NCBI GenBank assembly: GCA_947630885.1
Contig: CANRJI010000001.1
Coordinates: 1-24,434, forward strand
Direction of reading: 5' to 3'
Length of the DNA: 24,434 nt
Origin: an uncultured Bacilli bacterium
GTDB lineage: Bacteria > Bacillota_I > Bacilli_A > RF39 > UBA660
Each line of letters starts with the position of its first letter. The first letter of the stretch is position 1. Below are positions 17,559-21,172 of this stretch, piece after piece. The notes under the pieces are model-generated. The model had not been told where the DNA came from and did no database searches. It saw only the letters and a program-made list of their open reading frames with translations. Position numbers and translations under genes: made by a program.

Positions 17559-18932
17559 ATGAAAAAAACAAATTGGTGTACAAAAGAAGAAATGAAAAAA
17601 ATACTTACATCTGTCGATGTAAAAGGGGAAAATGTTAAGGCTGGCATTCCTGTAATGTATGACGATAACTATTTATATGTTAACGATAAAGTTGAACATA
17701 CTTTGGTTATTGGTTCATCTGGTAGTGGGAAAACACAGACAACTATTTTGCCAATGCTTAAACTGGCTATGAAGGCAGGTGAATCGATTGTTCTAAATGA
17801 TGTTAAGGGTGATATTTACAGAATGACCGCCAAAGAGTTGGAAAGGAATGGTTATAAAACAGTAGTTTTAGATATTGAAAATCCTAATTTAGGTAATTCT
17901 TGGAATCCATTTGCTCTTCCTTACAAATTATATAAAGAAGGTATGGTTGACAAAGCAATGGAGCTTCTTGAAAACATTATATACTACTTATTTAATGATC
18001 CTAAAGACAAATCGGCAAATATTGATCCATTCTGGACAAATACTTCAATTGATTATCTTACTGGTATGTCACTATATTTGTTTAGTGTCGCTAAAGAAGA
18101 AGAAATTAATTTAAAAAGTATATATGAACTTGCTATTACGGTATCAGGCTCTGAAGAAAAAGTGATTAAGGAATTTTTATCTAAAGTTGATAAAACGTCA
18201 AGTGTTTACTTTAACATCTATGGAACTTTAAGCACTCCTGTCGAAACGAGAAGTGGTATTATTGCAACTTTAAATAGTAAGATTAGACCTTATGTTTCAC
18301 GTGATAGTCTATCTAACATGATGGGGGCTACAGACTTTGATATAGAAAATATTGGTAATGAAAAGATGGCTATCTTTATTGTAAGTGGTAATACAGAGTA
18401 TAGTGATAATTTAATTCCTTTATTTGTAAATCAGGTTATTGACTGTGTCGATATTTATGGAAAAAGAGAGAAAAAAATTAATGTGTTATTAGATGAATTT
18501 GATTCATTACTTCCAATTAAGAATTTTTCAAAACTAATTAGTTATGCTAAAGGATTAAATATTAGATTTATAGCGGTAATTAAAAGCTATGTCAGTCTAA
18601 TGAATACTTATGGTAAAGATGGTTTAGAAATTATTAAAATGTGTTTTGGTAATGTTATCTATCTATTATCTAATGATATATACACTCTCGAAGAAGTTAG
18701 CAATTTGTGTGGAAATGTAACTGATGAAAAAGGTAATAGCACACCTTTAATATCAACTCAAGAACTTAAAATGATGGATAATTTTGAAGCTATTATTGTA
18801 ATGCCAAGAACTATGCCTTTTAGAACTCATCTTCTTCCTGATTATAAAATTGATTGGGGATTTGAAGACTCTTTGGTCGACATTCCTAAAAGAAAAGAGA
18901 ATGTAATTAATGTATATGATTGCACTAAATAA
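17559..18932 (+). CDS. VirD4/TraG-like type IV coupling ATPase lacking an N-terminal membrane anchor
   Basis: HTLVIGSSGSGKT (Walker A), SIVLNDVKGDIY, GNSWNPF, DPFW, Walker B VLLDEFDSL, YGKD...GNVIYL; strong SD GAAAGGAG. Confidence 0.88.
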   Translation: MKKTNWCTKEEMKKILTSVDVKGENVKAGIPVMYDDNYLYVNDKVEHTLVIGSSGSGKTQTTILPMLKLAMKAGESIVLNDVKGDIYRMTAKELERNGYKTVVLDIENPNLGNSWNPFALPYKLYKEGMVDKAMELLENIIYYLFNDPKDKSANIDPFWTNTSIDYLTGMSLYLFSVAKEEEINLKSIYELAITVSGSEEKVIKEFLSKVDKTSSVYFNIYGTLSTPVETRSGIIATLNSKIRPYVSRDSLSNMMGATDFDIENIGNEKMAIFIVSGNTEYSDNLIPLFVNQVIDCVDIYGKREKKINVLLDEFDSLLPIKNFSKLISYAKGLNIRFIAVIKSYVSLMNTYGKDGLEIIKMCFGNVIYLLSNDIYTLEEVSNLCGNVTDEKGNSTPLISTQELKMMDNFEAIIVMPRTMPFRTHLLPDYKIDWGFEDSLVDIPKRKENVINVYDCTK

Positions 18933-18955
18933 ATTTTTGCTTAACAAGGTGATTT

Positions 18956-19651
18956 ATGAAAAAGAAAAATAATATAATATATGTACCGGTCGATGTCGTT
19001 TACGATGACCCTGATTATGTAGCAAGTTCTTATTTGAATTGTTCTTATGGGCTTGCTCCAGTAGGTTTATTTGTAAGAGACTATCATGCTTGGGAACAGA
19101 ATTTTGCAAATTTTAAAGCAGATATTACGGACATTCCATTTAATTATAGTCCTGATGTATGGAGTCCATACTTTGAAAAAGGAACTTTTAAACATCGTGG
19201 TCAGCAATATAAATGCGTTAAAATCTCAGATAATGATATGTGCTCTATTAATAATGTATTATCCGGCTTTAATATGGAAGCTAAGCAAAAAGAGTTACCC
19301 GCGATTAGGGCTACCGATTTAACAGAACTTACAATTGATAATACAACATACATTTTTCTTAGCAATACTAGCAATATTAATTTAAATGTAATTACTGACT
19401 TATATGTTGTTACAGGTGATGAATCATATACTCCAAGAGAAGCTCTCGAAAGGTTTTTATCATTTGAACTTCCAGTTGGGTATAAAACTTTTGAACTTCT
19501 TCCGGGAGTAGATGCTATTGGATATACGAAAGATACAGAAATTGCTGTACTTCGCTATAGTAATAAGAAAAAAGATGAAAAAATTGCAGAGTTATCGAAA
19601 AAAATTTACGGCAAAAGTAAACCTAAAGTTCGAGTTCTTACAAAGGAATAA
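18956..19651 (+). CDS. Hypothetical protein, probably co-transcribed with the VirD4-like gene
   Basis: 231-aa ORF 23 nt after the VirD4-like stop, SD AAGGTGA, followed by a terminator; no family recognised. Confidence 0.8.
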   Translation: MKKKNNIIYVPVDVVYDDPDYVASSYLNCSYGLAPVGLFVRDYHAWEQNFANFKADITDIPFNYSPDVWSPYFEKGTFKHRGQQYKCVKISDNDMCSINNVLSGFNMEAKQKELPAIRATDLTELTIDNTTYIFLSNTSNINLNVITDLYVVTGDESYTPREALERFLSFELPVGYKTFELLPGVDAIGYTKDTEIAVLRYSNKKKDEKIAELSKKIYGKSKPKVRVLTKE

Positions 19652-19658
19652 ACTTGAT

Positions 19659-19685
19659 AAAGCATACTAAAACGGTATGCTTTTC
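19659..19685 (+). terminator. Intrinsic terminator after the hypothetical gene
   Basis: AAAGCATAC-taaaacg-GTATGCTTT followed by t, c, t. Confidence 0.7.
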
Positions 19686-19747
19686 TATTATAAGTTTTTA
19701 TTTTTATTGAAATTATAATGTGTAATTAAAACTATTAAATAAAGAAA

Positions 19748-19769
19748 AAGACTACTAATTTGTAGTCTT
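19748..19769 (-). terminator. Distal copy of the prsA terminator hairpin (retains the U tract); left target-site duplication
   Basis: AAGACTAC-taattt-GTAGTCTT. On the minus strand it is followed by TTTTCTTT (plus-strand aaagaaaa, 19741-19747). Confidence 0.75.
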
Positions 19770-19960
19770 CAGACTGTTGACAAACTACATTTTTAGTAAA
19801 AACCAAAATTTGAAAATTCTAAAAGTGGAAGAGAAAGTTAAAAATTGAGTGTTATTTGATATTAAAAATTCAAATTCACTCTTTTTTTAGTACTAAAGTG
19901 GGAGATTAAAAAAGCCGATTGACAAAGCCGGTTTGAAAAACCGACTTTGTCAACGGCCTG
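19770..19960. mobile_element. 191-bp non-autonomous element (MITE), IS1182-family-like ends
   Basis: Terminal inverted repeats CAGACTGTTGACAAA (19770-19784) and TTTGTCAACGGCCTG (19946-19960) match at 13/15. Flanked by an exact 22-bp direct repeat. Subterminal hairpin at 19919-19953. No transposase ORF. Confidence 0.8.
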
Positions 19961-19982
19961 AAGACTACTAATTTGTAGTCTT
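19961..19982. repeat. Right copy of the 22-bp direct repeat (duplicated terminator hairpin)
   Basis: AAGACTACTAATTTGTAGTCTT, identical to 19748-19769. Confidence 0.95.
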
Positions 19983-19990
19983 AATTTTGT

Positions 19991-21115
19991 CTATTTATAT
20001 TGATCCATATAAACTTCATATTTCTTTTCAAGTGAGGTATCAGAGAACTTTAATCCTGCATCTTTTCTCATTTTATCTAAACTGTTACCATATAGATTCT
20101 TATCATCAGTAAGCTTTTTGTCACCAAGAGTATCTAATATTTCTTTTTTAACATCTTCAAGAGCAGGTTTTTCTTTTTGGTCTATACGATAAACAACGTG
20201 ATAGCCATAAGAAGTTTTAACTGGAGTCTTACTATAACTTCCATTAGAAAGTGCTTTCATTTCATCCATGTATGCTGATTCAAGAGAAGCATTATAAGCT
20301 TTATAACCTAATTCTTCATAAGTTATTCTATCAGCATATTCTTCTTTTACTTCATCAAAACTCTTACCTTCATCTAGTTTAGATATTATTTCTTTAGCTA
20401 AATTTTCAGCTTCGGTTTTTTCTTCGGTAGTTGCGGAACTATCAACTTTAACTAACATATGTTTAGTATTGATATCACCAAATACTTCTTTTTCATAGTA
20501 GTCATTTATTTCGTTATCCGTTACTAAAGATTTAGCATAATCTTTGGAATATTTATCTCTTCGATATTGAAGTTTTAAATATTCAAGGAAGGATGCTTCA
20601 CTTGCAAAACCATAATTAGCTAAAAATTCTTCTTTGGTGTAACCATAATATTGGTCATTAACACTGTAGTAATTTTCGGCTTCACTTTGAACTTCATCAA
20701 TCATCTCATCATTTTCGGGATACTTTTCAGTAAGAATTTTATTATCTATTTTATCAAGTAGAGCTGAGATAGAATAGATAACTTTCATATCTTCATATAA
20801 ATCATCAGCAGTTACGACCATTCCTTCAATTTCAGCGACTGGTTCAGTTCCATCTTCTAACTTAGCAATTCTTTCAGGCCAAATAAGAACGGTAACAAGT
20901 GATGTTATAAGTATACCTCCAACTAAACCATAAATAGCCAAACGATATTTGTCAAAGAAAGCAAAAAATTTAAAAATTGCTTCATCGCTGTTTCTCTTAG
21001 TTTTTGCTTTATTATTATCTTTTCTTTCTTTTACTTTGTTTTTTTCTTTTACTAATTTATTTGTTTTAACTTCTTTTTCTTCTGTCTTTTTTGTATCATT
21101 TTTTTTCTTTGCCAT
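19991..21115 (-). CDS. prsA: PrsA-like parvulin peptidyl-prolyl isomerase/foldase, membrane-anchored
   Basis: Parvulin motifs TKHMLVK, GKSFDEVKEEY, SKTPVKTSYGYHVV; SurA-like N-domain; one TM helix. Start moved to ATG 21115 (SD GAAAGGAG); track start is 21148. Confidence 0.85.
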   Translation of the reverse strand: MAKKKNDTKKTEEKEVKTNKLVKEKNKVKERKDNNKAKTKRNSDEAIFKFFAFFDKYRLAIYGLVGGILITSLVTVLIWPERIAKLEDGTEPVAEIEGMVVTADDLYEDMKVIYSISALLDKIDNKILTEKYPENDEMIDEVQSEAENYYSVNDQYYGYTKEEFLANYGFASEASFLEYLKLQYRRDKYSKDYAKSLVTDNEINDYYEKEVFGDINTKHMLVKVDSSATTEEKTEAENLAKEIISKLDEGKSFDEVKEEYADRITYEELGYKAYNASLESAYMDEMKALSNGSYSKTPVKTSYGYHVVYRIDQKEKPALEDVKKEILDTLGDKKLTDDKNLYGNSLDKMRKDAGLKFSDTSLEKKYEVYMDQYK

Positions 21116-21143
21116 TTTATTTCTCCTTTCAATGTACATTAAT

Positions 21144-21172
21144 ATCATAGCAAAATTAAGGAAAAATTACAA
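21144..21172 (-). promoter_or_regulatory. Sigma-A promoter (extended -10) of prsA
   Basis: Minus strand: TTGTAA (21172-21167), 17-nt spacer, TGc-TATGAT (21149-21144). Confidence 0.6.

Follow-up and report, generated by a model that had tools for sequence, protein, structure and literature searches.

A 191-bp MITE of IS1182 type flanked by two copies of a terminator-like hairpin in an uncultured gut Bacilli genome

We found that the terminator-like hairpin behind a prsA-like gene of an uncultured Bacilli bacterium occurs twice, once on each side of a 191-bp element that has no transposase of its own. We put at about 93% the probability that a MITE of the IS1182 type landed on the terminator hairpin behind this gene and duplicated it in full, with one copy now on either side. 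This reading is built on the anatomy of the element, its copy number, the hairpin duplication seen at every copy, the identity of the transposase in a partner element, and the empty orthologous sites of related genomes. Positions given without a contig name refer to the window, the whole stretch of 24,434 nucleotides that we analyzed.

Results

The element occupies positions 19770-19960 (191 bp, + strand) and is bracketed by two 22-bp hairpin copies (19748-19769 and 19961-19982) that are 100% identical and consist of an 8-bp stem and a 6-nt loop each. An exact direct repeat of 22 bp within a 751-bp stretch is far beyond chance. The element starts with CAGACTGTTGACAAA and ends with TTTGTCAACGGCCTG, which are complementary at 13 of 15 positions and make up its 15-bp TIRs. 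The left TIR (19770-19784, + strand) is identical to both ends of a full-length IS in another uncultured Bacilli genome (locus L102, below), and the right TIR lies at 19946-19960 on the - strand and reads CAGGCCGTTGACAAA as the reverse complement. Between the TIRs the element is AT-rich, and 19770-19960 contains no ORF that reaches 40 aa. This order of parts, from a 22-bp hairpin through TIR, AT-rich core and TIR to the same hairpin again, is exactly what the first-pass annotation had claimed, and the sequence confirmed it.

Folding of the interior revealed a + strand hairpin (19847-19881) with arms GAGTG/CACTC and further inner pairs, followed by T7 (the whole feature spanning 19847-19888). 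Its stem region and T-run are kept in relatives, and it looks like a terminator for readthrough from the left. On the - strand, a consensus scan identified a strong, inward-facing terminator-like hairpin (19908-19954, with the stem-loop at 19954-19918) of 17 pairs with a 3-nt loop and the tail CGGCTTTTTT; in this structure, the right TIR is paired with an internal inverted copy of itself, and a T-run comes next. A consensus scan for a sigma-70-type promoter inside the element found none. A repeat listing also brought out the heptamer AAAGTGG, which occurs twice on the + strand of the MITE (19822-19828 and 19895-19901) and is conserved in relatives. In most of the full-length IS elements compared (L112-L129), AAAGTGG words stand right after the TIR (GACAAAGTGG) at the end where the transposase stops. 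The heptamer may be a subterminal transposase-binding site, for which we regard it as a candidate.

The gene to the right encodes a PrsA-like PPIase of 385 aa (19991-21148, - strand; ORF with a Pfam Rotamase match), and its terminator hairpin is the target of the insertion, with 8 bp between the end of the gene and the hairpin. Both hairpin copies were terminator-like in a consensus scan of the window. The left copy (19748-19769) was called on the - strand (19770-19747) and is followed by a T-run, which makes it the terminator that the prsA-like gene had originally, together with the T-tract; the right copy (19961-19982), proximal to the gene, was called on the + strand. The left neighbor is a 231-aa ORF without Pfam hits (18956-19651), which has a separate terminator-like hairpin outside the element (19659-19683, + strand; consensus scan). 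Together with a gene for a VirD4/TraG-type coupling protein (Pfam T4SS-DNA_transf), this ORF makes up the left flank (17559-19651). Genomes of the same genus match only the prsA side of the locus (from about position 19980 onward), and a DNA search that included 19100-19651 of the left flank found no counterpart of that part in them. The MITE may lie at the border of an integrated remnant of conjugative origin.

The genome that contains the window is represented by a 76%-complete assembly of 896,865 bp in 100 contigs with 29% GC. We found 13 full-length copies of the element in it at 99.5-100% identity, nine of them identical and four with a one-base difference. Five contig ends stop inside the element. 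Two of these (C54-3′ and C87-5′) are halves of one copy, and the remaining three partial copies have three different flanks, so that the genome holds at least 17 insertion sites (13 full copies and at least 4 at contig ends). All 13 full copies lie within a perfect direct duplication of 22-32 bp that is different at every site and folds as a hairpin each time (-4.1 to -11.6 kcal/mol), and the flanks still match at all 13. Perfect duplications and near-identical copies fit a recent burst, in agreement with the recent event proposed in the first-pass annotation. The same annotation had taken the element for a multi-copy MITE and a non-autonomous derivative. Both views held: the partial copies are as similar as the full ones, the element has no ORF, and searches of the assembly with Pfam models DUF772 and DDE_Tnp_1_6 and by tblastn with two IS1182-type transposases detected no IS1182-type transposase. 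The properties of a MITE are thus all present, in that the element is small, non-coding and bounded by TIRs, with site-specific duplications and dispersed near-identical copies, an autonomous element with matching ends in a related genome, and empty sites in relatives. Searches of a plasmid collection and a phage collection gave no match to the MITE.

All 13 sites adjoin at least one ORF 3′ end. The orientation of the element relative to the neighboring genes is approximately random: the gene is faced by the right end only at five sites and by the left end only at four, and the other four lie between convergent ORFs. The empty sites, as reconstructed, consist of an A-tract, a stem-loop and a T-tract. 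All 13 copies, like 12 related elements, have a duplication that is symmetric about the palindrome's dyad, and the palindrome reaches at most 0-5 A·T pairs past the duplication. From position and consensus, we infer that the target hairpins are intrinsic terminators; the earlier proposal that the element targets such terminators agrees with the terminator-like hairpins found at gene 3′ ends. At several sites, a stop codon lies inside the hairpin, and since the whole hairpin is duplicated, each gene keeps an intact end. We also observed sites at which the stop codons of convergent genes lie inside a shared hairpin (G000 C14:8877-9117, L013; also C33, C41, C5 and C43), which means that the genes overlapped within one terminator in the empty site. 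After insertion at sites of the C14 type, each convergent gene has a full hairpin copy.

We then compared the insertion sites with genomes of the same genus, which are other species with flanking genes about 75% identical. Behind prsA, these genomes have one hairpin, with a sequence of its own, and the element is absent. At the site orthologous to C14, a gap of 37-117 bp with a single hairpin separates their convergent genes, compared with a gap of 250-300 bp in the window's genome. One rabbit-gut contig, which matches the prsA end at 179/180 positions, also has one hairpin, followed by non-MITE sequence that resembles the left flank. The first-pass annotation had called for empty-site alleles with one hairpin in related strains. 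Such sites, with one hairpin and no element, were found at the two orthologous positions in same-genus genomes, but a strictly conspecific allele was not recovered: an exact-pattern scan of metagenome contigs gave no match, and exact-protein look-ups with two flanking genes led to no record for one and to an identical filled contig for the other. Rabbit-gut contigs aligned to the window showed no joint across the element in the parts with cover.

These comparisons bear on the idea that the two hairpins belong to a conserved ncRNA or regulatory structure of the prsA locus, held at fixed spacing and non-mobile. The 235-nt stretch comprising the element and both hairpins folds far better than shuffles (z about -9), and the element has terminator-like hairpins inside it, both of which speak for such a structure. 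However, most of the strong fold comes from the duplicated hairpins and the TIRs, which pair trivially, and there is no match in Rfam, where a scan of 19400-20300 at a permissive E-value returned only a chance snoRNA match (E = 0.92). Moreover, the same 191 bp stand at 13 or more unrelated loci with different flanking hairpins each time, and the orthologous sites in relatives have one hairpin and lack the insert. Relatives with both hairpins at conserved spacing, which the first-pass annotation had named as the finding that would count against a MITE, were not seen, since same-genus relatives carry a single hairpin without the element. The number of copies, each with a duplication specific to its site, already refutes a conserved RNA, and we assign it practically no probability.

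At 72-90% identity, related elements measuring 190-191 bp are found in further genera of this bacterial family; they share the ends and architecture of the MITE and have hairpin duplications of 22-28 bp. Similar MITEs are also present in gut metagenome contigs. The element at L102 (G391:C11; contig CAJUNF010000011, from an uncultured Bacilli MAG; L112 is the same place) is 1667 bp long, has perfect 15-bp TIRs identical to the left TIR of the MITE, and is flanked by a 19-bp hairpin duplication. Its 494-aa ORF contains the domains DUF772, DDE_Tnp_1 and DDE_Tnp_1_6 and scored 413.9 bits on NF033551 (IS1182 family transposase; cut-off 270), an assignment that applies to the partner element, on which it was tested, and not to the MITE itself. 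The full-length partner with the same ends that had been anticipated was thus found in related genomes, complete with the same 15-bp TIR, an IS1182-family transposase and a hairpin duplication, but was not found in the MITE's own, 76%-complete assembly.

A scan of species-representative genomes revealed 44 related loci, mostly in gut Bacilli/"Tenericutes" MAGs from mouse, rabbit and human. At 18 of these (L112 and 17 others), both ends could be paired to give a full-length element. Perfect hairpin duplications of 19-33 bp flank 10 of the 18. In gut MAGs they measure 19-27 bp, and in two Bacillaceae elements, which have a TIR ending in GAGAAA, 32-33 bp. One further locus has a 7-bp duplication only, and seven have none, although four of these seven begin at a contig end, so that the left flank lies beyond comparison. 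At the end where the transposase starts, the full-length elements have a TIR, an inverted TIR copy and a T-run, which is the architecture of the right end of the MITE. This end architecture and the 15-bp TIR are all that the MITE and the recovered full-length elements have in common. The nearest annotated plasmid-borne IS1182 transposases are at most 50% identical.

Could a transposase of another family that duplicates inverted repeats have mobilized the MITE? IS1630 of Mycoplasma fermentans, an element of IS30 type, duplicates inverted repeats (Calcutt, Lavrrar and Wise 1999, J Bacteriol 181:7597, as cited in PMC3317919), and the duplications reported for it, according to that citation of the 1999 paper, measure 16-26 bp. 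The MITE's host belongs to a small-genome, low-GC Bacilli lineage, and its own assembly has no detected transposase, both of which would suit such a source. As a known system, IS1630 differs from the MITE in its IS30-family transposase, in its ends and in being a full-length IS. However, the full-length elements with exactly this 15-bp TIR and hairpin duplication encode IS1182-family transposases (18 loci), and none from any other family turned up with such ends. We consider mobilization by an IS30-type transposase very improbable and retain an IS1182-type transposase as the agent.

The search for a closer parent gave further observations. Among metagenome contigs, the left subterminal sequence of the MITE led to no full-length IS; where the other end was found, the elements were only MITEs of 189-192 bp. 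A 1734-bp rabbit-gut metagenome contig agrees with the left end of the MITE over the first ~38 nt alone (3 mismatches) and diverges beyond them; this contig may represent a full-length IS that has the subterminal sequence of the MITE, i.e., the true parent. We also considered a second IS1182-like element, at G038:C63:1-2198 (L048), as the partner. It has a 536-aa ORF with DDE_Tnp_1_6 and 187 bits on NF033551 (below the cut-off of 270), and its inverted repeats are long and of quite different sequence, starting with AAGCAAAAAGGGGCTGAGTAG. We rejected it because its ends differ from those of the MITE. The genome G038 (same family, ~1.4 Mb) contains 42 exact TIR matches with at least five different subterminal sequences, and most of these matches lie 38-54 bp from contig ends (e.g., L050-L057). 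Contigs of G038 and G085 are broken by a multi-copy IS whose interior was absent from those assemblies. In G038, the pattern suggests that several IS1182-type elements have expanded greatly and thereby fragment the assembly.

Among older MITE copies in metagenome contigs, about half are flanked by two different hairpins (L163, L169, L172, L181, L184 and others), and in one contig, which appears under the entry name ODUU01000030.1, the halves of one hairpin pair are split between different MITE copies. Recombination between MITE copies, through inversions or other rearrangements, would produce such mismatched flanks. These exchanged flanks, together with the terminator-like hairpins in both directions and the conservation of length and hairpin architecture across genera at 72-90% identity, could also be read to mean that the copies are mobile in origin but have been domesticated and are kept as portable bidirectional terminator cassettes or recombination sites. 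Against this, inward-facing terminators are ordinary self-protection of IS ends and are present in the full-length elements too, and the near-identical copies in the window's genome indicate a recent burst rather than long retention. We therefore hold domestication to be improbable, though a little less so than an IS30-type origin, and regard the copies as recent insertions of an IS1182-type MITE.

Discussion

The targeting of stem-loops by the IS1182 family, which the first-pass annotation had cited as established, has indeed been described. Some IS1182 members target palindromes according to Siguier et al. 2015, as that work is cited in PMC5678879 and PMC4923244. ISCbo5 (Skarin et al. 2011, PMC3098183) inserts at inverted repeats that fold into hairpins at gene ends; the hairpins were taken as transcription stop signals, and the element was said to be "surrounded" by the hairpin. 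ISCbo5 and ISBma2-like elements (Clostridium botulinum group III and C. novyi-NT) resemble the MITE in belonging to the IS1182 family, in their gene-end hairpins, and in being intergenic and of high copy number. However, ISCbo5 is a full-length autonomous IS of Clostridia, whereas the element here is a transposase-less 191 bp in small-genome gut Bacilli.

The staphylococcal elements IS1272 and TnSha1 likewise choose terminator hairpins for their structure, but the hairpin is deleted on insertion (Furi et al. 2016, PMC4923244; Wan et al. 2017, PMC5678879), and several target hairpins of IS1272, TnSha1 and TnSha2 were confirmed as terminators by RNA-seq (PMC4923244, PMC5678879). IS1272 and TnSha1/TnSha2 thus share with the MITE both the IS1182 family and targeting by structure and not by sequence. 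In contrast to the perfect whole-hairpin duplication at 13 of 13 full copies here, IS1272 deletes or replaces the hairpin without a target duplication. Since the best-studied member, IS1272, behaves in this other way, behavior is not uniform within the family.

A close likeness also exists to the L102/L112 IS and its gut-MAG relatives, which have the identical 15-bp TIR, hairpin duplications of 19-27 bp, and a TIR, inverted copy and T-run at one end, and which come from the same bacterial family and the same gut habitat as the host of the MITE. They differ in their length of 1.65-1.68 kb, in the 494-aa transposase, and in a subterminal sequence unlike that of the MITE beyond the TIR. The element described here is a further IS1182-type terminator-hairpin element, in uncultured gut Bacilli and in a miniature form that duplicates the whole hairpin; the principle was already published.

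For the way in which the insertion proceeded, the cut positions, the recognition of a cruciform and the effect on termination are our inference. A DDE transposase supplied in trans would bind the TIRs and recognize the palindromic hairpin or cruciform by its shape and not by its sequence. Gap repair across the long stagger would then copy the whole hairpin, and the duplication would consequently be as long as the hairpin itself (22 bp here and 19-33 bp elsewhere). This scheme would correspond to "pathway b" as modeled by Wan et al. 2017 (PMC5678879), where the whole stem-loop becomes duplicated once the ends are joined at the 5′ feet; IS1272 actually joins at the 3′ feet, and the hairpin is lost (PMC5678879). 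As for the genes, the duplication of the whole hairpin and the inward-facing terminator-like hairpins of the element would leave no gene end damaged, and the insertion is probably near-neutral. With the proximal hairpin now lacking its T-tract, the prsA transcript probably stops just inside the element, as far as can be judged from the arrangement of hairpins and T-runs.

In a more far-reaching version of this scheme, an IS1182-type transposase would recognize the cruciform once it is extruded and make symmetric cuts at the foot of the stable stem or close to it. The shape of the target would then set the size of the duplication, and the MITE, with terminator-like hairpins both ways, would act as a self-insulating cassette tolerated at high density in the small genomes of gut Bacilli. 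Cleavage measured by structure was modeled as pathway b by Wan et al. 2017 (PMC5678879), in that paper without biochemical demonstration for the IS1182 family. We regard the combined proposal as speculative and on the whole doubtful. If it were true, each insertion would record the length of a terminator stem.

The element reveals no new principle. What it does provide is a clean natural collection of insertions, at least 13 of them recent and with perfect junctions, to which relatives add dozens. Annotators should not read the doubled hairpins of such elements as regulatory RNAs, and the elements explain why contigs break and terminators appear in duplicate when genomes of these uncultured gut Bacilli are assembled. 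For the IS1182 family, the insertions show that this subgroup duplicates whole terminator hairpins symmetrically about the dyad, in contrast to IS1272, which deletes them; biochemical tests of structure-directed target choice could build on this difference.
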